Assembly: GCA_016186915.1 (NCBI GenBank) | Contig: JACPKU010000006.1 | Location: 173,739 to 237,738 of the forward strand | Origin: Candidatus Doudnabacteria bacterium | GTDB taxonomy: Bacteria > Patescibacteriota > Doudnabacteria > UBA920 > O2-02-FULL-48-8 | Length of the DNA: 64,000 nt | Direction of reading: 5' to 3' | Shown here: in pieces, positions 2,034 to 63,507 of the stretch | Numbering within the stretch: the first letter of the stretch is position 1 | Layout: each line of letters begins with the position of its first letter | Made by a program: the position numbers and the translations under genes | The notes under the pieces: generated by a model | Databases searched by the model: none | The model's input: only the letters and a program-made list of their open reading frames with translations | Told to the model about the DNA's origin: nothing

Positions 2034-3029
2034 TTAGAATCCCCCGATGTTGGCGATGGGCGCTTTGATTGCCGGATGCGGATTGTAGTTTTCCAATTTA
2101 AAATCTTCGAATTTGAAATCGTCGATGTTTTTTATCTTGGGATTAATACTAATGTTCGGCCAGGGTTTGGGATCTCGGGATAGTTGTTCCTTGACCGCGT
2201 CGAAATGATTGGAATAAATGTGAACGTCGCCGAAAAAATGGATAAATTCACCGGGTTCAATCCCAGTGACTTGTGCGACCATTAGAGTTAACAGCGAATA
2301 ACTGGCAATATTAAACGGCACTCCTAAAAACAAATCTCCGCTTCGCTGAAACATTCCACATCGCAATTTGTTATTTACCACAGCAAACTGAAAAGTAGTA
2401 TGACAAAACGGCGGCACTTCATTCGCATTCCCCTTCGATGCCATTTGATAAATAAAATCCGGATTCCAAGCAGATACTACGTAAGATTTGCGGTAGGGTT
2501 TGTTTTTCAGACCCTCAATCACCCAACCAAGCTGGTCAATCTCTCGTCCATCAGAAGCTGGCCATCGCCTCCACATCCGGCCGTAGACGGTAATCAAATC
2601 TCCCCAATTTTTGACGAACTCGCTATCTGTGGGCTCGGCTTTGAGCCTGGCAATAAATTCGTCCTGCGTCAGATCGGGATGCGCGCCGGCCAGGGCCAGT
2701 TTATGGTATCGCTTCCAGGCCCATTCATCCCAAATATGAACATCATTATCCACTAAATATTTAATATTGGAACTGCCGGAAAGAAACCAGAGAAGTTCGT
2801 GTATGATGCCGCGAGTAAAAATTTTTTTTGTAGTCAACAATGGAAAACTTTTCGACAAATCAAATTTCATCATTTGACCAAAAACCGAACGAATGAACGG
2901 CGGCTCCTCGCCTTTCTTTTTATACTCCGCCAGAACTTCCGGCGTAAAAAATAAAGGCTTATCCGAGCCGTGGTTCAAGATATCTTTCAGCAAATTCAAA
3001 TATTGATACTCGGGGTGTTGGAATGACAT
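2034..3029 (-). CDS. thyA: Thymidylate synthase (ThyA type) with lineage-specific insertions
   Basis: The sequence FPLLTTKKIFTRGIIHELLWFLSG plus downstream ThyA blocks identify it. At 331 aa it is longer than the roughly 264 aa typical form. Confidence 0.85.
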   Translation of the reverse strand: MSFQHPEYQYLNLLKDILNHGSDKPLFFTPEVLAEYKKKGEEPPFIRSVFGQMMKFDLSKSFPLLTTKKIFTRGIIHELLWFLSGSSNIKYLVDNDVHIWDEWAWKRYHKLALAGAHPDLTQDEFIARLKAEPTDSEFVKNWGDLITVYGRMWRRWPASDGREIDQLGWVIEGLKNKPYRKSYVVSAWNPDFIYQMASKGNANEVPPFCHTTFQFAVVNNKLRCGMFQRSGDLFLGVPFNIASYSLLTLMVAQVTGIEPGEFIHFFGDVHIYSNHFDAVKEQLSRDPKPWPNISINPKIKNIDDFKFEDFKLENYNPHPAIKAPIANIGGF

Positions 3030-3040
3030 CTATTTATTTT

Positions 3041-3066
3041 ACATTCATACAGTCGTGTATGAATGT
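3041..3066. repeat. Palindromic hairpin repeat ACATTCATAC-n6-GTATGAATGT, copy 1
   Basis: It has perfect 10 bp arms and lies 2 nt after the CYTH stop codon. Two further copies lie at 3177-3202 and 19753-19782. Confidence 0.7.
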
Positions 3067-3067
3067 A

Positions 3068-3742
3068 TCAGTCTATATTAAAAGTTTTCTCAGTTCCATA
3101 ATAATCTTGCCAGTTCTGGTTATAATATGCAAACATGCGTTCCAAGCGATCCTGCGGCAACTCTTGTAATCCAAGCACATTCATACAGTCGCGTATGAAT
3201 GTCTTTGTGTTTTCTGCCTTGTCAGGATCACTTATGATTTTTTCGAACTCTGCCAAATAACCATAACCGGCGTTTTTATCAATACTGACGTTCATGTCTT
3301 TGTATTTAAACTCTTGGCGTTCTCTTGACCACTTGGCCTGATAGTGGAAACCTGAATCGAGAATCAATTTATCCAGTTCCTCCAAAGAGAGATCTACTTC
3401 GGATTCTAACTCTATTCTCGCGGTGCCGTTGCTTGAGGTGGTGTCATCAATGGATGCTTTGATGATTAATAAAACCCGGCCGTCACGATTGGCTGTTCTG
3501 ATAGAATAATCTTTGGCCTGCTCGCATAAATTTTTTAGGTTTTCTTTCTTTTCTTTTTCAACGTGCTTCACTATATTACTGTACAGTAATACAGTGTTGC
3601 TTCCGCTGAAGTAATGGTTTTGCTGCTTGTGCGGACCTAATGATTGAAAATTGGGATCGTCAGCTTTCATCTTGGTAATCAAATTATCAGCGTTATTCTT
3701 CCCGCCTAGTAAGCTTTTAATTTCTATTTCGTAAGCTGCCAT
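3068..3742 (-). CDS. CYTH (triphosphate tunnel metalloenzyme) domain protein
   Basis: The N-terminus carries an ExExK motif (AAYEIEIKSLL). Downstream there are acidic beta-strand motifs (RIELESE, LAEFEKI). Confidence 0.45.
   Translation of the reverse strand: MAAYEIEIKSLLGGKNNADNLITKMKADDPNFQSLGPHKQQNHYFSGSNTVLLYSNIVKHVEKEKKENLKNLCEQAKDYSIRTANRDGRVLLIIKASIDDTTSSNGTARIELESEVDLSLEELDKLILDSGFHYQAKWSRERQEFKYKDMNVSIDKNAGYGYLAEFEKIISDPDKAENTKTFIRDCMNVLGLQELPQDRLERMFAYYNQNWQDYYGTEKTFNID
3177..3202. repeat. Palindromic hairpin repeat, copy 2 (inside the CYTH coding region, about 37 codons from its C-terminus)
   Basis: The sequence is ACATTCATAC-AGTCGC-GTATGAATGT. It is translated as FIRDCMNV. Confidence 0.65.
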
Positions 3743-4289
3743 ATTTTTTGACCTATTGCCTGCTTGGAAAGCAGTTTACCATTAACGACGCATTGAATTC
3801 TGTTCCAAGATTTATCTGACTGTAAAATTTTCAAAGCCCGTTTTCTAGCTCGTTTCTGATGATCCAGATCAGCCTCGTGTTTGTCCTTTTTTCTTGATCT
3901 CATGAGCTTGGCTGAAATCTCCACTGGCATGTCAAGAAGAATCGTGATCTTGGGTTGAGGCAGTTTCAGTAAACCAAATGGATCATGTTTGAACCGGTGT
4001 ACCGGTCGAGTATTACTACATTTCCTTGGTTTAAACTTTTTATCAACTGGTCGCGGTATTCGTACCTGTTTAAAGCGTATAAAAAAGCAATTAATTTCGC
4101 GCCGTCAAATTTGAGCTGTCCGTTTAAATATTTTGCTATCAGCTTGCCGGTTGGCGTATGGTATCGGGGGAAAGATACCACTGCAACCGGATAACCGTGG
4201 TTTTTGAAGTTCATCCTTAAAAGTTCCGCTTGTGTTCCTTTTCCCGACCCGTCAATCCCTTCAATTGCAATAAGCCTTCCCTTGGACAT
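3724..4289 (-). pseudogene. tmk: Thymidylate kinase split into two out-of-frame ORFs (3966-4289 N-terminal part, 3724-3930 C-terminal part)
   Basis: The N-terminal ORF has the P-loop EGIDGSGKGTQ and a DRY motif, then stops. The C-terminal ORF (RSRKKDKHEADLDHQKRARKRALKIL...WNRIQ) resembles the Tmk LID/C-terminal region. The two ORFs are in different frames, and about 35-40 central residues appear to be missing. Confidence 0.45.
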
Positions 4290-4294
4290 GTTGC

Positions 4295-4879
4295 TTATTT
4301 TTTTCTTTTTTTAAACTCTTCGAAAAGTTTGGACGCTGAAGCCACTTTGGCACCGGAGTACTTATTACTTTTCTTTTTATTATACGGGGTCAAGGCCGGG
4401 CTTGATAGTTCTTCAAACGTAAACGCGCATATCCTCATGCCTGGATAAAGTGCTACCGGCATTACGCCCAAATTCCCTAATTCCAAAGTAGGCTTACCGA
4501 TCCAGCCCGGATGAAACACTGAAGCCGTGCCGTGAACAATGATCCCCAATCGGCCAAGGCTGCTGCGCCCTTCCACGCGCCCCACCAGATCACTGGATAT
4601 TTGCAGAGTCTCTACTGTAGTCACTAGAGCAAAGTCACCAGGCTGCATGATGAAAGACTCTCCTTTCGGCACAACAATTTCTTTCATTAACTTGCTGGCG
4701 TCAATCTTACTTTTAAGATCAATGTACGGATGGCTGGAATGTTGAAAAACTCGAAACCGGTTGCCTAAATGCAAATCGATCATACAGGCATCGAGTTGTT
4801 CCTGATAGTTCGGTTTCGGGGTAATTTTTATTCGCCCGGCTTTTATCGCTTGTTTGATGTCTTGGTCTGAAAGAATCAT
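4295..4879 (-). CDS. dcd: dCTP deaminase
   Basis: The protein begins MILSDQDIKQAIKAGRIKITP...IDLHLG, which is the dCTP deaminase / dUTPase fold. It is 194 aa. Confidence 0.8.
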   Translation of the reverse strand: MILSDQDIKQAIKAGRIKITPKPNYQEQLDACMIDLHLGNRFRVFQHSSHPYIDLKSKIDASKLMKEIVVPKGESFIMQPGDFALVTTVETLQISSDLVGRVEGRSSLGRLGIIVHGTASVFHPGWIGKPTLELGNLGVMPVALYPGMRICAFTFEELSSPALTPYNKKKSNKYSGAKVASASKLFEEFKKRKK

Positions 4880-4909: not shown

Positions 4910-5635
4910 TCATACTTTTCGGCTTTTCATAAAACCTCGCAGGATCGGGTAGTAAAGGTCGTCTTTCAGAGGCATGACAGTTTTTCGATATGTGGCTTTG
5001 TTGGTGAACCGAGTTTTGAAGCCGCGGATAATCACAATTGGCGTTTGTTCAGATCCCTCGCCCATCAACAAAACCGCCATGGCTGCCAATGGCTCTACAA
5101 GATTAGCTACAGTAACCTTCAGTTTACGGCCAAAGATATCAGGAGTCTTTCGGTAATCCTTTAGAGGTTCAAAACCGAAAAACCCAATTGATATTCCGCT
5201 AATTCCCCTACGTAGAGGTGTAATATGACTATCAGTCGCGATTAGACCCAACTTCTTAAGGCCGTGTTTGCGCTTAAGATAAGACCAAAACTGTTTAAGA
5301 AGCTTATTTGTATCTTTAGGCCAGAGAATATAGTGGCCTTTGGCATTGCTCTCGTCGATCCCGGCAGAAGCTATGATCGTGTGATGCTTAATAGTGAACA
5401 CAAACTTGTGTTTACTATTTGTAGGATGCAAAGCCACGTACTCAGCCTCTGATTGAATCAGTTTATTCTTATCTACCTTCGTATCTATTTTAACAGTGCG
5501 GCCTTGGTGGATGGCCAGGATCTTGGACGTGATCACCGCGATATCCCCGTCTTTGAGCTTAAGTTTGTCTAAGATGTCGTAGATTTCGTCTTTTGGTGGC
5601 AGGACCTTACGAGTTTTAACTTTGATGAATTGCAT
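4910..5635 (-). CDS. CofE-like (F420-0:gamma-glutamyl ligase family) protein of unknown function
   Basis: It contains DGDIAVITSKILAIHQGR, ASAGIDESNA, LIATDSH and LLMGEGSEQTPIVIIRG, which are blocks typical of the CofE/FbiB N-terminal domain family. Confidence 0.55.
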   Translation of the reverse strand: MQFIKVKTRKVLPPKDEIYDILDKLKLKDGDIAVITSKILAIHQGRTVKIDTKVDKNKLIQSEAEYVALHPTNSKHKFVFTIKHHTIIASAGIDESNAKGHYILWPKDTNKLLKQFWSYLKRKHGLKKLGLIATDSHITPLRRGISGISIGFFGFEPLKDYRKTPDIFGRKLKVTVANLVEPLAAMAVLLMGEGSEQTPIVIIRGFKTRFTNKATYRKTVMPLKDDLYYPILRGFMKSRKV

Positions 5636-5752
5636 ATGTATTTAACAATCCTTTTTCACTGAACTTGCTTACAAGTTTTTTGAATATCACGTAATTAAAC
5701 GCGATCCCTACAGCAAACAATGAGCGCTCCAAAATTACAATCGGGATTAAGC

Positions 5753-6217
5753 TTAGCCAAACCGCACTTGGCAGAAAGTGGCTCCCAGACTTCGCGCCAG
5801 CAATGATTTATTATACAGCGGATACATCAACAATGGAATCAACCAGAACATGGCGTAGAACCAGACGGTTCTGCCGATGGGATGAGCAATAAATGCTAAG
5901 ATTGCCAAAACCGGAATAACTAAATTTATTTTAGATTGTCTTGCGAAGTAGATTACTGCGAACATTGTCGGGATCAAGCGAATGATTGAGCCGAAGTCAA
6001 GATTAAAGTTGCCGTGCAGAAATAAATTTACGACTTGCATCGCCACCACAGACAGAATTCCCCAAGCTGTGCCTAAGAAAGAACCAACAATTGGAGCGAA
6101 CGCATCAAACAGAGTGAAGTTGGCGGTTGAGCCCGCCAGGTTCGAAATTTTAACTTGCAGCGCCACGATTCCTAAAGTGGTGAAAAGGACTATAAATATT
6201 ATTTTTCTTGTGTTCAT
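5753..6217 (-). CDS. Small polytopic membrane protein, possibly an ECF-transporter S-component-like protein
   Basis: It is about 154 aa with 5 transmembrane segments, counted from an internal Met (MNTRKIIFIV). The upstream part of the track ORF overlaps a structured RNA region and is probably not coding. Confidence 0.35.
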   Translation of the reverse strand: MNTRKIIFIVLFTTLGIVALQVKISNLAGSTANFTLFDAFAPIVGSFLGTAWGILSVVAMQVVNLFLHGNFNLDFGSIIRLIPTMFAVIYFARQSKINLVIPVLAILAFIAHPIGRTVWFYAMFWLIPLLMYPLYNKSLLARSLGATFCQVRFG

Positions 6218-6429
6218 ATGTTTAAGATTGTCATTCCAGCGAAAGCTGGAATCCAGAAACTTTGGATCTGGATCCCAGATCAAGTCTGGGATGACAGATT
6301 AATTCTCAAATCAAAAACTCCCGGCATGGGAGCTTGTTAAATAATACGCTAACAACTCCCAAGTCTAAAAGACTTCGGAATTTTCCGCAAACGATGACCA
6401 GATTTGTTTGTTTCGAGTAATTAACATAA
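6218..6429 (-). promoter_or_regulatory. Structured leader between rplA and the membrane-protein gene: an intrinsic terminator plus several mutually exclusive hairpins, a candidate riboswitch or attenuator
   Basis: On the minus strand the leader contains AAGCUCCCAUGCCGGGAGUUUUUGAUUU (a terminator). The upstream segment UUGGGAGUUGUU can pair with its 5' arm. It is followed by repeated CCAGA/UCUGG hairpins (about 6230-6299), including UUCCAGC-UUUC-GCUGGAA. Confidence 0.35.
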
Positions 6430-7104
6430 CTATATTTTAACTTTTATTGCTGGTCCCATTGTAGCATGAAGTGTAATGCCTTGCACAAACTCCTTTTTCA
6501 CTCCTGCTGTTCTGGTTTGCATCAAAGCATTCAAAAAGGACCTGTAGTTCTCCAAAAGTTTAGCCGAGTCTAGATCGGACTTGCCAAGCAGCATATGCAC
6601 ATTGCCTGATTCGTCGTTTTTAAACTCCGTCTTGCCAGCGGCATATTCCTTGATCGCCGTGCCAATGTCTTGGGTAACAGTTCCGGCTTTGGGGTTGGGC
6701 ATCAATCCTTTGGGTCCCAGTATTTTGGCGATCTGGGCAAGTTTAGGCATCATGGCTGGTTCAGCAATTGCTACGTCAAATCCAATTGTTCCTTTTTCTT
6801 TGATTTGCTTAATCAGATCCTCTCCGCCAACCACCACGGCTCCTGCATCCTGCGCTTCTTTTTCTTTGCCTTCTGTCACGAAGGCTCCGACTTTTTTGGT
6901 TTTGCCTGTTGCGTGAGGCAGAGTGAGAGTTGACCGCACCACTTGGTCAGTTTTTTTCGGATCTATACCTAATCGGACGTGAACCTCAAGATTCCCCACA
7001 AACTTGGTGGTGGCAGTCTGTTTGGCAAGCTTAATTGCTTCTTCTGGAGTGTATAGTTTGGTGTTGTTAACTGCCTTTTTTGCATCCTCGAATCGTTTAC
7101 CCAT
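6430..7104 (-). CDS. rplA: 50S ribosomal protein L1
   Basis: The sequence MGKRFEDAKKAV...KFVGNLEVHVRLGIDPKK...TLPHATGK identifies L1. The track ORF is extended upstream by a TTG start. Confidence 0.85.
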   Translation of the reverse strand: MGKRFEDAKKAVNNTKLYTPEEAIKLAKQTATTKFVGNLEVHVRLGIDPKKTDQVVRSTLTLPHATGKTKKVGAFVTEGKEKEAQDAGAVVVGGEDLIKQIKEKGTIGFDVAIAEPAMMPKLAQIAKILGPKGLMPNPKAGTVTQDIGTAIKEYAAGKTEFKNDESGNVHMLLGKSDLDSAKLLENYRSFLNALMQTRTAGVKKEFVQGITLHATMGPAIKVKI

Positions 7105-7161
7105 AAAATCCTTTCGTGGTGTTAACGTCGCGCTCAACCGCGGACTCCCACAATTAATTGA

Positions 7162-7524
7162 TTAAACCTGTCCTTCTTTTTGAATTAATCGCCAATGATA
7201 AACGAACAACGGCAAGCCAACTATGAGTTGGGCAACCGCGTTTGAGGCCTGTCTTTGTCTGTCAGAGGTTCTCTGTTGTCTTTGCCTTTCCTCTTCTTTC
7301 GCTTCTTTGGCGGCAATTTCTTCCTCAGTCAACTCCTCTTGCGTCCCTTCCTTAGTCGGTGCGGCGAATCGGTCTACGTAAATAGGATAATTATCAGCCT
7401 GTTTAAACACAAAGGTTTTCAATCCCAGATCAATCAGGCTGACTGAACCGGTAATCATAAGCACCAAACCCACGACCGCGAACAGATAGAGATAGATTTT
7501 TCGCACCGTTAGATTTAAGGCCAT
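7162..7524 (-). CDS. Hypothetical two-transmembrane membrane protein inserted between rplK and rplA
   Basis: It has two hydrophobic helices flanking a charged linker rich in E, K, R and Q. Confidence 0.4.
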   Translation of the reverse strand: MALNLTVRKIYLYLFAVVGLVLMITGSVSLIDLGLKTFVFKQADNYPIYVDRFAAPTKEGTQEELTEEEIAAKEAKEEERQRQQRTSDRQRQASNAVAQLIVGLPLFVYHWRLIQKEGQV

Positions 7525-19673: not shown

Positions 19674-19750
19674 TGGCGTCCCCAGAAGGACTCGAACCTT
19701 CGACCTTCTCCTCCGGAGGGAGACGCTCTAATCCACTGAGCTATGGGGAC
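19674..19750 (-). tRNA. tRNA-Arg (anticodon CCG), CCA encoded
   Basis: The reverse complement is GTCCCCATAGCTCAGTGGATTAGAGCGTCTCCCTCCGGAGGAGAAGGTCGAAGGTTCGAGTCCTTCTGGGGACGCCA, which folds as a cloverleaf. Confidence 0.85.
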
Positions 19751-19752
19751 TC

Positions 19753-19782
19753 ATACATTCATACACGACTGTATGAATGTAT
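19753..19782. repeat. Palindromic hairpin repeat, copy 3 (12 bp arms, ATACATTCATAC-ACGACT-GTATGAATGTAT)
   Basis: It overlaps the stop codon of the NYN gene and abuts the tRNA-Arg 5' end. Its loop is inverted relative to copy 1. Confidence 0.7.
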
Positions 19783-32859: not shown

Positions 32860-32934
32860 GAATGCTTGATGGAGCCGGCTGTCAGATTTGAACTGACGAC
32901 CTACCGCTTACGAAGCGGTTGCTCTACCCCTGAG
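32860..32934 (-). tRNA. tRNA-Thr (anticodon CGT), flanked by a 14 nt inverted repeat (CCCCGTACCAGAATG ... CATTCGGTACGGGG)
   Basis: The reverse complement is GCCGGCTTAGCTCAGGGGTAGAGCAACCGCTTCGTAAGCGGTAGGTCGTCAGTTCAAATCTGACAGCCGGCTCCA. Confidence 0.85.
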
Positions 32935-32990
32935 CTAAGCCGGCATTCTGGTACGGGGCTACGGTTTACGATACCGTTGCTCTACCATTG
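32935..32990 (-). pseudogene. 5' half of a second tRNA-Thr(CGT)-like gene (acceptor GCCGACC, D-arm, anticodon arm ACGGT-ATCGTAA-ACCGT) lacking a T-arm
   Basis: The reverse complement is GCGCCGACCTAGCTCAATGGTAGAGCAACGGTATCGTAAACCGTAGCCCCGTACC. Its matching 3' acceptor strand lies 145 nt downstream, beyond the intact tRNA-Thr. Confidence 0.5.
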
Positions 32991-32994
32991 AGCT

Positions 32995-33045
32995 AGGTCG
33001 GCGCGTTGGTGCAGGCTGCTGTTATGATACTGCTGCTCTACCATT
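32995..33045 (-). pseudogene. Second, more degenerate copy of the same tRNA 5' half
   Basis: AATAGCTCAATGGTAGAGCAGCAGTATCATAACAGCAGCC aligns with CTAGCTCAATGGTAGAGCAACGGTATCGTAAACCGTAGCC. Confidence 0.45.
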
Positions 33046-33097
33046 GAGCTATTTTGGTGTATTCAATTACAATTATACCACATATATCACAAAAAAC

Positions 33098-33136
33098 AGC
33101 CCAAACCCTATGTTTATATTTTCCGCGATCGTTGTA
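33098..33136. repeat. 39 bp perfect direct repeat, copy 1 (CTATGTTTATATTTTCCGCGATCGTTGTAATTATAAACA)
   Basis: It is identical to the sequence at 33737-33775. The two copies bracket the PaaX-like gene. Confidence 0.8.
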
Positions 33137-33168
33137 ATTATAAACATCGGACCCCTTCTCAAATAAAA

Positions 33169-33736: not shown

Positions 33737-33775
33737 CTATGTTTATATTTTCCGCGATCGTTGTAATTATAAACA
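33737..33775. repeat. 39 bp perfect direct repeat, copy 2
   Basis: It lies 17 nt upstream of the PaaX-like start codon and overlaps the Nudix stop codon. Confidence 0.8.
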
Positions 33776-34862: not shown

Positions 34863-34936
34863 TGGAGCGAGCGACGGGAATCGAACCCGCGTCTCAACCT
34901 TGGGAAGGTCGTATACTGCCATTGTACTACGCTCGC
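34863..34936 (-). tRNA. tRNA-Gly (anticodon CCC)
   Basis: The reverse complement is GCGAGCGTAGTACAATGGCAGTATACGACCTTCCCAAGGTTGAGACGCGGGTTCGATTCCCGTCGCTCGCTCCA. Confidence 0.8.
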
Positions 34937-34957
34937 AAAAATTTTGGTGCGGAGCAG

Positions 34958-35000
34958 GCCCATGCCTAAACCTTGGGAAGGTCTCGTACTGCCATTATAC
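34958..35000 (-). pseudogene. Degenerate partial duplicate of the tRNA-Gly 5' half, about 20 nt upstream of the intact gene
   Basis: taaaccttgggaaggtctcgtactgccattatactaatcccgc aligns with tcaaccttgggaaggtcgtatactgccattgtactacgctcgc. Confidence 0.5.
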
Positions 35001-35008
35001 TAATCCCG

Positions 35009-35851
35009 CTATTTTACGATTTTCCAAACCGGCAAGTTTTGGGTTTGGTGCTCAAACCATTGATCAAACCCGCTGGTTTCCACCAAAATATGCTTAACCT
35101 GCCAAACTTTCGCTTCGCCTTGACCATTGGATTCAACTGGGTAAAGCAGATGATAGCCAAACCTGCTCACCACGATCTGGTCCAACACCGCGCCAATTTG
35201 GGCTTGGTCAATTTTATTAAACAATTCCGGGATAATTTCATGTTCCTGGACAAATCCCAAATCTCCGCCAAATTGCCCAGTCAGTTTATCATCGCTTTTC
35301 TCCCGCGCCAAGTCTTCAAAACTTCGTCCTTCATTCAGCTGCCTTTGAATATCCTTGATTCGATTAAATGCGTTACTGTTCATCTCAAAGTTTGAGTTGA
35401 AACGAATCTTTAGTGCCGCAGACAAAGCTTCGGGCTCAACCACGAATTTTTCAAACAATTTTTCCTGTCCGGAAAAATGATCCTTGACCAATTTAATATA
35501 TTCATCATTGTTGTTGGTCTTGAAAAACAAAAACTCATCGGTTATCTTTCCACTGTCATAATCCACCCTTAGTTTCCTCACCAGGCTTTCCATTTTTTTC
35601 GCGCTGATCAGTTGATCAATCACAGTTTTTTTGGAAACGGTACTGTCTAAGCTTCTGGCAATTTCAAACGCTTTATCTAACTCATATATTGATATCAGGC
35701 GCTCCCGGACCACCACGGCTGGATAGATTTTTTTGAAGGTTAAACTCAGCGGGTCATGAAAATCAGCAGCGTAGGCGATAAACGCAGTCAAAGCAAAAAG
35801 CACGAGCACTCCCAAAATAATTACGATGGTCAAATAAATCTTGTGCGCCAT
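35009..35851 (-). CDS. Membrane-anchored PpiC/parvulin-type peptidyl-prolyl isomerase (PrsA/SurA-like)
   Basis: It has an N-terminal transmembrane segment and the parvulin block GGDLGFVQEHEIIPELF...GYHLL. Confidence 0.7.
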   Translation of the reverse strand: MAHKIYLTIVIILGVLVLFALTAFIAYAADFHDPLSLTFKKIYPAVVVRERLISIYELDKAFEIARSLDSTVSKKTVIDQLISAKKMESLVRKLRVDYDSGKITDEFLFFKTNNNDEYIKLVKDHFSGQEKLFEKFVVEPEALSAALKIRFNSNFEMNSNAFNRIKDIQRQLNEGRSFEDLAREKSDDKLTGQFGGDLGFVQEHEIIPELFNKIDQAQIGAVLDQIVVSRFGYHLLYPVESNGQGEAKVWQVKHILVETSGFDQWFEHQTQNLPVWKIVK

Positions 35852-61771: not shown

Positions 61772-61790
61772 CCATACTAATTTCAGAGGC

Positions 61791-61893
61791 GAGAGTTTGC
61801 TGCAAAATTAGCCTTCGCAGGCCGACGGGCCGAGAAAGCAGGCCGCAAAATCAGCAGATTTTGACGGCCGGTAATTTTGCAGCAAACTTGAGC
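61791..61893. repeat. About 100 bp structured repeat element, copy b
   Basis: It has a 16 bp perfect outer inverted repeat (GTTTGCTGCAAAATTA and TAATTTTGCAGCAAAC) and the core CAAAATCAGCAGATTTTG at 61846-61863. It is homologous to copies a and c. Confidence 0.7.
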
Positions 61894-63390: not shown

Positions 63391-63486
63391 GGGTTGCAAA
63401 ACTACCGACTGTCAAAATCTGCTGATTTTGCAGTCTACTCGCTCGCACCGTCGTGCTGCGCGGGTTAGTTTTGCAACAATCCCTCG
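63391..63486. repeat. About 100 bp structured repeat element, copy c (reverse orientation)
   Basis: Its terminal inverted repeats are GGTTGCAAAACTACC and GGTTAGTTTTGCAACAATCC. The core CAAAATCTGCTGATTTTG lies at about 63413-63430. Confidence 0.7.
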
Positions 63487-63507
63487 TTAAAGATAAAATG
63501 ATAAAAA

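Follow-up and report, generated by a model that had tools for sequence, protein, structure and literature searches.

The DNA analysed here, a window of 64,000 nucleotides from a Candidatus Doudnabacteria genome of the Candidate Phyla Radiation (CPR, Patescibacteria), carries on its minus strand, in this order, secE, a YdjM-like gene, nusG, rplK, a gene for a DUF5671 membrane protein, rplA, a spacer, a gene for a membrane protein resembling the S components of energy-coupling factor (ECF) transporters, a CofE-like ligase gene, dcd, tmk and a CYTH gene. The spacer between rplA and the ECF-S-like gene, in which an earlier note made from the sequence alone had seen a candidate riboswitch or attenuator, is our subject. 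It consists of two unrelated parts, a putative attenuator (6305-6429) and a palindromic repeat (6230-6295). With a probability of roughly 0.7, the 5' 125 nt constitute a ribosome-dependent leader-peptide transcription attenuator, made up of a short upstream open reading frame (uORF), an intrinsic terminator and a helix that competes for the terminator's 5' arm.

A conserved uORF and its terminator

Two syntenic relatives that have leaders, loci L130 and L131 (related loci bear L numbers), share a block with the window, and read in frame this block is a short ORF. The leader peptide would be MLITRNKQIWSSFAENSEVF in the window, MLLTRNKKIWSSYAE in L130 and MLITRNKRIWSSYAETALGH in L131; its conserved core comprises codons 1-13 (6427-6389), with an invariant Trp10 at 6400-6398. 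Because a NUDIX gene separates rplA from the uORF in L131, the uORF travels with the transporter operon and not with rplA. Through transporter homology it was reached in L130, L131, L007, L158, L168, L171, L205, L218, L175 and L207, those other than L130 and L131 having been added when all the collected loci were searched with mismatches allowed, with nhmmer and with the peptide pattern. A degenerate DNA pattern applied to JGI metagenomes returned 8 matches, 7 of them distinct (one duplicate contig pair), where by our estimate ~0.01 would be expected by chance, and every one of these matches has a hairpin and a T-run downstream. The peptide pattern ML[ILV]x6WS[SG][FY] occurs 26 times in the six frames of 1.75 Mb, corresponding to 16 distinct loci. 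All 16 either lie upstream of and on the same strand as transporter/folate operons or come from the pattern scan, with none elsewhere in the 1.75 Mb. A uORF pattern had 0 matches in viral contigs. According to their records, the lineages concerned are Doudnabacteria, Uhrbacteria, Magasanikbacteria and unclassified Patescibacteria. The consensus of the peptide is ML[IL]T[RH]xKxIWSS[FY], in which M1, L2, W10 and S11 are invariant; the C-terminal part is not conserved, and the shortest peptide has 15 residues.

The conserved block varies as coding sequences do. Coding character was evaluated on the nine loci reached by means other than the degenerate pattern scan, since that scan would bias the codon positions; the sequences are related and few, and the values are to be read as indications, not as probabilities. 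Pairwise differences at codon positions 1, 2 and 3 amount to 0.24, 0.31 and 0.48, the mean BLOSUM62 score is 3.17 in frame 0 as against 1.10 and 1.58 in frames 1 and 2, and the three frames contain 0, 8 and 11 stop codons, respectively. The share of synonymous pairs among the differing codon pairs is 0.36, a value reached by 0 of 2000 column permutations. Different codons are used for the same residue, for instance TTA, TTG, CTG and CTA for Leu, ACT, ACA and ACG for Thr, and TCG, TCC, TCA and TCT for Ser12. All these measures are indications pointing to translation of the uORF.

As to how such translation would begin, a TANNNT hexamer stands 5-9 nt before the ATG in 10 of the 16 uORFs, against a background of 9.9% among all ATGs of these loci (binomial P = 4e-7), and a Shine-Dalgarno-like motif is missing in 15 of the 16, the window included. 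L212 has a full promoter, TTGACG-17-TATAAT-6-ATG, ahead of its uORF. Given the -10-like hexamers and the missing Shine-Dalgarno motifs, the uORF is probably leaderless, transcribed in the window from a promoter whose -10 element would lie inside the end of rplA; since the rplA stop codon is so close to the uORF ATG (Table 1), re-initiation after rplA is also possible.

Folded as a whole, the spacer reaches -73.5 kcal/mol (z = -7.4; 0 of 200 shuffles were as good), and its 5' part taken separately has a z of -3.4. The sequence features listed in the earlier note are all present on the minus strand where it had placed them. Its description of a terminator after rplA whose 5' arm can pair elsewhere proved correct: a consensus scan calls the terminator at 6335-6315, with 8 pairs, and the minimum free energy (MFE) fold contains the alternative helix GGGAGTTGTT/AACAAGCTCCC. 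It is this antiterminator helix, not the terminator, that the equilibrium fold holds. The 5' strand of the helix begins 7 nt past the first base of the uORF stop codon, that is, inside the footprint of a terminating ribosome.

Table 1. The spacer, its elements and the adjoining genes, in window coordinates
Feature	Position	Strand	Basis or remark
rplA (ribosomal protein L1)	6430..7137	-	Pfam Ribosomal_L1 E = 2e-52; ORF list
-10-like hexamer TAAAAT	6434..6439	-	6 nt upstream of uORF ATG, in last codons of rplA
rplA stop TAG	6432-6430	-	2 nt ahead of uORF ATG
Spacer between rplA and transporter gene	6429-6218	-	212 nt
uORF (putative leader peptide)	6365..6427	-	20 codons and stop: MLITRNKQIWSSFAENSEVF; ATG 6427, stop 6365
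Small hairpin GAAGTC-TTTTA-GACTT	6361..6376	-	MFE folds; loop and 3' arm contain the uORF stop codon
Predicted antiterminator helix	6328..6360	-	GGGAGTTGTT (6360-6351) with AACAAGCTCCC (6338-6328); MFE and centroid folds
Intrinsic terminator	6313..6335	-	stem GCTCCC/GGGAG(T) 6333-6318, loop ATGCC, T5 6317-6313
AATCT, left direct repeat	6296-6300	-	read from sequence
66-nt two-hairpin palindromic repeat	6230..6295	.	GTCATCCCAGACTTGATCTGGGATCCAGA-N8-TCTGGATTCCAGCTTTCGCTGGAATGAC; two hairpin modules in inverted orientation
AATCT, right direct repeat	6225-6229	-	read from sequence
ECF-S-like membrane protein gene, pseudogene here	5616..6217	-	alignment with 11 homologs; frame translations
CofE-like gamma-glutamyl ligase	4910..5635	-	PF01996 E = 9e-35; second gene of putatively controlled operon
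dcd	4295-4879	-	3' of CofE-like gene
Split tmk	3724-4289	-	after dcd

The same architecture recurs behind the uORF in other loci. A hairpin with a T-run follows it in 13 of the 16 instances (in 11/11 of the first ones found), is weak in L175 and has no counterpart nearby in L158 and L168. The terminator stems are unrelated in sequence (CTCCC/GGGAG, CCGCC/GGCGG, CTGCCC/GGGCAG, CGCCC/GGGCG, CCACC/GGTGG and CCCGTCT/AGGCGGG). In most members a segment able to pair with the 5' arm of the terminator lies 0-7 nt from the stop codon, well beyond what shuffles give. In the L131 group the stop codon falls within the 3' arm of a CCCUAG/CUAGGG hairpin, and this CUAGGG, with GCUUU, has an alternative partner in AAAGC...CCCUAG, the stretch that forms the terminator's 5' arm and loop. 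L211 and L218 have GCUAGG/CCUAGC in place of the ACUAGGG/CCCUAGU of the others. The same pairing relation is found, with wholly different sequences, in L216, L171, L205 and the window. Thus the attenuator proposed in the earlier note has its equivalent in other CPR lineages, where a leader module with terminator and antiterminator is conserved upstream of the same operon.

We modelled the effect of a ribosome by masking the A-site codon and 12 nt more as unpairable and folding the leader as far as the loop of the terminator. When this mask is at codon 13, the predicted probability that the 5' arm of the terminator is paired is 0.43-1.0, and with the mask on the stop codon of 0.01-0.33, in the window (1.0 and 0.2, respectively), L131, L210, L212, L213, L216, L171 and L205; the corresponding values for L218 are 0.79 and 0.45. 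As computed, the model fits 9 of the 14 terminator-bearing instances. Summed over the first ten instances, the mask effect is 5.53, compared with 1.24 +/- 0.88 in dinucleotide shuffles of the segment between mask and terminator, and none of 5000 resamplings reached it. Individually extreme against their shuffles are the window (1/100), L216 (0/100) and L171 (0/100). Left untranslated, the leader is predicted to favour the antiterminator in most members.

L158 and L168 share several further blocks past the uORF (L158 2650-3000, L168 2726-3000; among them tagNttgtagaNatgccatc, caatctatctNgaNaaaatc and aaagcacccc), and these leaders may hold an additional structured element.

The operon behind the leader

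The module stands 30-350 nt from the next start codon, on the same strand and with no gene between, and is always directly upstream of folate/thymidylate operons. An ECF-S-like gene and a CofE-like ligase gene follow it in the window, L130, L131, L211, L212, L218 and others, with DHFR in addition in L007; in L207 it is followed by a FolC-like gene, DHFR and a transporter gene, and in L210, which otherwise mirrors the window, by a 2OG-Fe(II)-oxygenase-like gene, dcd, tmk and CYTH. The folate and thymidylate context noted earlier is real, with CofE-like, dcd, tmk, thyA, DHFR and FolC-like genes in the window or its relatives, and every function behind the module suggests salvage of folate and the thymidylate cycle.

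Assignment of the first gene as ECF-S-like agrees with its predicted fold. The AlphaFold2 (AF2) model has a pLDDT of 92.5, and in a Foldseek search of the PDB its ten best matches are all ECF S components (RibU, BioY, FolT), if weak ones (E = 8e-3 to 0.3, TM-score 0.5-0.65). At the sequence level, Pfam PF12822 (ECF_trnsprt) matches weakly, with E = 1.8e-4 and 22 bits against a cut-off of 30.7, 4 of 24 homologs match it, and a PDB sequence search with the transporter protein found no relative. Homologs number in the hundreds in CPR, of which 366 were confirmed in species-representative genomes; the CofE-like ligase gene is linked to the transporter gene in most of the 80 loci examined, and, where gene tables were inspected, some loci have DHFR too. 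The earlier note had allowed that the upstream part of a 176-aa ORF at this place might be translated. Alignment of 11 homologs identifies ATG 6217 as the orthologous start, and since the homologs start there the upstream extension of that ORF is non-coding.

In the window the transporter gene is decayed. It is without ~15 nearly invariant residues (TAHAVGGALWIWAFN), its frame shifts near 5770-5776, and the C-terminal 50 residues lie in another frame; its truncated product has an identical entry at NCBI, HYW51_02345. An assembly error was considered as the source of the frameshift and ruled out: the lesion is the same, at 100% identity, in six independent assemblies and therefore marks a real pseudogene. 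The attenuator would here most likely now serve mainly the CofE-like gene, dcd and the genes downstream. The CofE-like ligase scores 202.8 bits with TIGR04132 ('putative folate metabolism gamma-glutamate ligase'), below the cut-off of 350. The tmk gene is split into an N-terminal ORF (3966-4289, 107 aa), which matches only profile positions 1-93 of 185, and a second ORF of 68 aa (3724-3930); independent assemblies have the same gene calls, and the tmk of relatives is intact, with 222-241 aa.

The closest syntenic relative, L004/L129 (Doudnabacteria GCA_016198045.1), has the order rplK, DUF5671, rplA, transporter, CofE-like, dcd, dut, tmk, thyA, and in both the window and L004 the transcription unit runs on into dcd, (dut), tmk and thyA. 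The DUF5671 membrane protein gene (7162-7524, minus strand) between rplK and rplA is kept in the Doudnabacteria-like loci L004, L130 and L131 and is unusual for an L11-L1 operon. An autoregulatory site of L1 was ruled out for the spacer, as the module is also found without rplA upstream and Rfam shows no ribosomal-protein leader. Separately, an adenosylcobalamin (AdoCbl) riboswitch that is unrelated to the leader was found in L167 (Parcubacteria) at 644-804 on the plus strand, 2.2 kb upstream of a transporter homolog, with 52.3 bits at a gathering score of 50.

The palindromic repeat

The 3' part of the spacer folds at -33.3 kcal/mol (z = -5.2) and is, judged by its sequence, an element of the widespread GTCATTCC...GGAATGAC (dRS3-like) family, the hairpin form of which is GTCATTCC-hairpin-GGAATCCAG. 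The earlier note had described here a cluster of mutually exclusive CCAGA/TCTGG hairpins (6295-6230) and a GNRA-like stem, TTCCAGC-TTTC-GCTGGAA. Both are present, but the hairpins form a single 66-nt imperfect palindrome instead of a mutually exclusive regulatory set, and hairpins and stem together are a copy of a widespread palindromic repeat. On its plus strand the repeat contains a spurious ORF with '...VIPAKAGIQ...', for which nothing was found in the literature.

The class to which this element belongs is already known and very widespread. The dRS3 consensus of Neisseria is ATTCCC-N8-GGGAAT, a 20-bp inverted repeat (PMC1797815). Like dRS3/NIME, the window element is composed of hairpins of the 20-nt class, two in number, ATTCCAGC-TTTC-GCTGGAAT and ATCCCAGA-CTTGA-TCTGGGAT, with GTCAT/ATGAC ends; unlike the dRS3 consensus, its arms read ATTCCA-N8-TGGAAT (a compensated change) and ATCCCAGA-N5-TCTGGGAT. 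Two Rfam families, FtrB (RF02748, Francisella) and WsnRNA46 (RF02625, Wolbachia), contain the same hairpin module. Positions 6210-6318 match them below threshold, at 31 bits against gathering scores of 65-66, over a hairpin GUCAUUCC-NGCG-NNNN-CGCN-GGAAUC, and they do so on both strands, as expected because the element is a DNA palindrome.

Copies of the module are scattered widely. The pattern GTCATTCCNGCNNNNGCNGGAATCCAG, which has 21 fixed bases, matches at least 120 stretches in a viral-contig collection; among the 172 modules in the stretches listed, the two free stem positions are complementary in all 25 of the commonest variants (C-G, G-C, A-T, T-A), and many of the viral-contig modules occur as inverted pairs, like the window copy. 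Another 12 modules were present, in six loci, in ~617 kb of CPR loci that had been collected for other purposes. A compact two-hairpin copy lies directly upstream of the start of the transporter homolog in L165 (2921-2975). L175 (Uhrbacteria), which has three or four copies, reproduces the layout of the window at 2611-3001, with uORF, hairpin and T-run, repeat copy and transporter gene; apart from L175, the other uORF-bearing leaders have no repeat. The repeat has entered the intergenic position upstream of the transporter gene several times independently.

At the window copy the element ends GTCAT.../...ATGAC and is flanked by a 5-bp AATCT duplication that resembles a target-site duplication. 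With inverted repeats at its termini, this duplication and vacant sites in relatives, it has the marks of a MITE-like mobile element. Short-read assemblies made independently from the same population are interrupted at the centre of the repeat (6256-6258) or at its edge (6229/6230). On the sequence evidence, the repeat is a later insertion between terminator and start codon and not part of the conserved regulator. It counts against this view that a clear flanking duplication is seen at the window copy only and is not evident at other copies, and that the element is single-copy, with no second copy in the 64-kb window. No transposase or associated recombinase was identified for the repeat.

The window contains other repeats as well. 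A ~95-nt repeat occurs in three copies (21498-21594, 61790-61881, 63395-63493) that are ~80% identical, one of them inverted and one adjoining a tRNA cluster at 21331-21692. A second palindromic family (ACATTCATACAGTCGTGTATGAATGT) likewise has three copies (3040-3073, 3176-3207, 19748-19785), of which one abuts the tRNA gene at 19677-19750 and the CYTH gene has two around its 3' end, one on either side. Tandem tRNA-like direct repeats at 32901-33051 and 34886-35009 stand beside the called tRNAs 32873-32944 and 34866-34936; the extra copies score below the Rfam tRNA gathering score and may be tRNA fragments or pseudo-tRNAs. Near them, a perfect 39-nt direct repeat (33108-33146 and 33737-33775, 629 nt apart) could mark an insertion or the duplication of an attachment site.

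Proposed mechanism, alternatives and known systems

If the 5' part of the spacer is an attenuator of the kind we favour, the uORF would be translated into a peptide whose N-terminal 13 residues are shared by several CPR lineages. A ribosome arriving at the uORF stop codon would cover the 5' strand of the antiterminator, so that the terminator would form and transcription would end at 6313-6317, before the ECF-S-like gene, the CofE-like gene, dcd and tmk. A ribosome held at the conserved Trp-Ser-Ser-Phe/Tyr would instead let the antiterminator form first, and RNA polymerase would read through. At the window locus an untranslated uORF would likewise lead to read-through, and impaired translation of the leader peptide would mean higher expression of the operon. 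Because the peptide is conserved without a codon run, peptide-specific pausing around Trp10 to Phe/Tyr13 is suggested. Because all the controlled genes serve folate salvage, polyglutamylation, reduction or thymidylate, we infer that the input would report folate or one-carbon status.

One could go further and take ML[IL]T[RH]xKxIWSS[FY] as a new translation-based folate/one-carbon sensor in CPR, in the role that tetrahydrofolate (THF) riboswitches have elsewhere, an idea we consider rather doubtful. Such sensing might proceed through nascent-chain arrest depending on a folate- or thymidylate-related ligand, through formyl-Met-dependent leaderless initiation, in which low 10-formyl-THF would leave the leader untranslated and permit read-through, or through slow decoding by tRNAs without folate-dependent modifications. 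The idea is compatible with a purely folate/thymidylate regulon, a conserved peptide, a uORF that looks leaderless and a leader that, untranslated, favours the antiterminator in most members.

Several observations weigh against the attenuator. Five of the 14 terminator-bearing instances (L130, L007, L211, L175, L207) depart from a simple model in which a ribosome at the stop codon turns the operon off and a stalled one turns it on. Of these, L211 and L007 have no mask-dependent change and L175 has a weak terminator. L130 has its terminator 5' arm within the uORF, and L207 has a trp-like segment 1 under the last codons; in both the simple model would predict the opposite sign at the stop codon, as if translation would favour read-through. 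The leaders of L158 and L168 are 270-350 nt long with no terminator nearby. The peptide has no tandem codons for one regulatory amino acid, its sole repeat being Ser-Ser; such a codon run marks the amino-acid subclass of attenuators, not the mechanism as such. A strict -35/-10 consensus scan called no promoter before the uORF in the window. Pair counting in five alignable relatives gave 96% paired cells and one compensated pair, with 90 of 500 shuffles as good, and MAFFT applied to all leaders did not bring the divergent stems into register. Because covariation in the five relatives is weak, the structural argument rests on an architecture that recurs with different sequences. The first gene under the putative control is a pseudogene in this population. 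Finally, the nearest ortholog, L004/L129, has no leader, its rplA stop overlapping the transporter start (ATGA); without a spacer there, control must be dispensable. The earlier note had said that a lack of conservation in relatives would speak against its proposal, and the relatives are divided on this point: the nearest one lacks the leader, whereas the leader module is conserved in other CPR lineages.

How do other explanations compare? The one the earlier note leaned towards, a metabolite-binding riboswitch, would have the leader RNA bind a vitamin or nucleobase and thereby flip terminator and antiterminator. That such a pair exists, that the leader folds much better than shuffles and that folate-family transporter genes in other phyla, outside CPR, are often under riboswitch control would all suit it. 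However, Rfam (version 15) yielded only tRNAs (seven), and no riboswitch or leader family, in a cmscan of the 64-kb window at gathering score. With the threshold relaxed to E <= 10, the stretch 6100-6550 likewise gave no riboswitch or leader family, THF-I/THF-II, ZTP, thiamine pyrophosphate (TPP), preQ1 and FMN included, returning only repeat-derived small RNA (sRNA) models and noise. Nor did any riboswitch reach gathering score ahead of the transporter gene when 20 related loci were scanned; the AdoCbl element of L167, 2.2 kb away from that gene, was the only one to appear in them. The sole conserved block behaves as a small protein-coding ORF and not as an aptamer, varying at third and synonymous positions and staying an open frame; the stretch from uORF to terminator is constant neither in sequence nor in length, a mobile repeat makes up the structured 3' half, and the 'TPP-like CUGAUCUGG' to which the note had drawn attention falls within that repeat. 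We consider a riboswitch highly improbable. The same holds for an ordinary end of the ribosomal-protein operon, that is, a plain terminator after rplA accompanied by chance hairpins. The module does directly follow rplA in the window, L130 and L210, and the nearest ortholog needs no leader at all, but uORF and terminator occur without rplA upstream in L131, L207 and L007 and behind a canonical promoter in L212, and chance is excluded by the z-scores and shuffle tests.

A free-standing functional micro-protein is less easily dismissed, although we still judge it unlikely. The hairpin and T-run would then just end its transcript, or that of rplKA, and the operon would be expressed from a promoter of its own, with no attenuation. 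Conservation of the core at the amino-acid level, the five instances that do not follow the mask model and the two (L158, L168) that have no terminator nearby are in keeping with this, whereas the reduction of the peptide to as few as 15 residues, its unconserved C-terminal part, its constant place on the same strand directly upstream of folate/thymidylate operons with no gene between, and the closeness, in most members, of its stop codon to the complement of the terminator 5' arm, far greater than in shuffles, argue against it. Compatible with attenuation in the 5' part would be a function of the palindromic element at this site, by occluding the ribosome-binding region, stabilising the mRNA or acting as an sRNA. 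The end of the element is 12 nt away from the start codon and its fold is strong, in L165 and L175 members of its family closely precede transporter homologs, and FtrB and WsnRNA46 are described in Rfam as sRNAs. Its absence from most other uORF-bearing leaders, Rfam scores of half the gathering score with matches on both strands, the scatter of the family over unrelated contexts and the decay of the following gene to a pseudogene make such a function quite improbable.

To our knowledge, gene regulation in CPR bacteria is almost undescribed and their cis-regulation almost uncharted. These organisms do not make most cofactors, and salvage must be tuned. If true, the attenuator would be among the first cis-regulatory systems defined for the CPR radiation, standing ahead of genes for folate uptake, polyglutamylation and DHFR and of thymidylate genes, and would offer a short, testable peptide that may connect the ribosome with one-carbon status. 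The spacer also illustrates that a 'structured leader' in genomes of this sort may combine a real regulator with a selfish palindromic repeat, a mosaic that would mislead structure-based riboswitch hunting; palindromic repeats of this family also break metagenome assemblies.

No prior description of the attenuator was found in Rfam or in the literature searched. Like the THF-I/THF-II, ZTP, TPP and preQ1 riboswitches, which control folate, one-carbon or vitamin transporter genes by terminator/antiterminator switches, the leader precedes such genes with a predicted switch of this type; unlike them, it matches none of their models at E <= 10 and its conserved part is coding. In TnaC, SpeFL, ErmCL/ErmBL and SecM, peptide conservation reflects stalling in the ribosome tunnel, sometimes with a small-molecule ligand, TnaC acting via Rho and ErmCL via translation. 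The leader resembles these systems in being conserved as a peptide and not as a codon run. It differs from them in that it is not known to have sequence similarity to any, that stalling is putative and that the read-out here would be an intrinsic terminator.

Closest in layout are the trpL, hisL, leuL and pheL leaders of E. coli, with which the present one has in common a short leader ORF, an intrinsic terminator before the first structural gene and a helix that sequesters the terminator 5' arm, and in which, as predicted here, the position of the ribosome on the leader ORF decides which helix forms. The L131 group even has trp-like three-way segments, 1:2, 2:3 and 3:4. Unlike those leaders, ours has a conserved 13-residue peptide without a codon run, precedes folate/thymidylate salvage genes, is probably leaderless and belongs to CPR/Patescibacteria. 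In mycobacteria, leaderless short ORFs encoding poly-cysteine are reported to be cysteine-responsive attenuators with tandem Cys codons (bioRxiv 10.1101/834739). They share with the leader, which is probably of this kind, a leaderless short ORF as first cistron that would set downstream expression, whereas the CPR leader has no codon run, has a clear terminator/antiterminator pair and belongs to another phylum and regulon. The leader would represent a known kind of control, ribosome-dependent attenuation, in a seemingly undescribed family.

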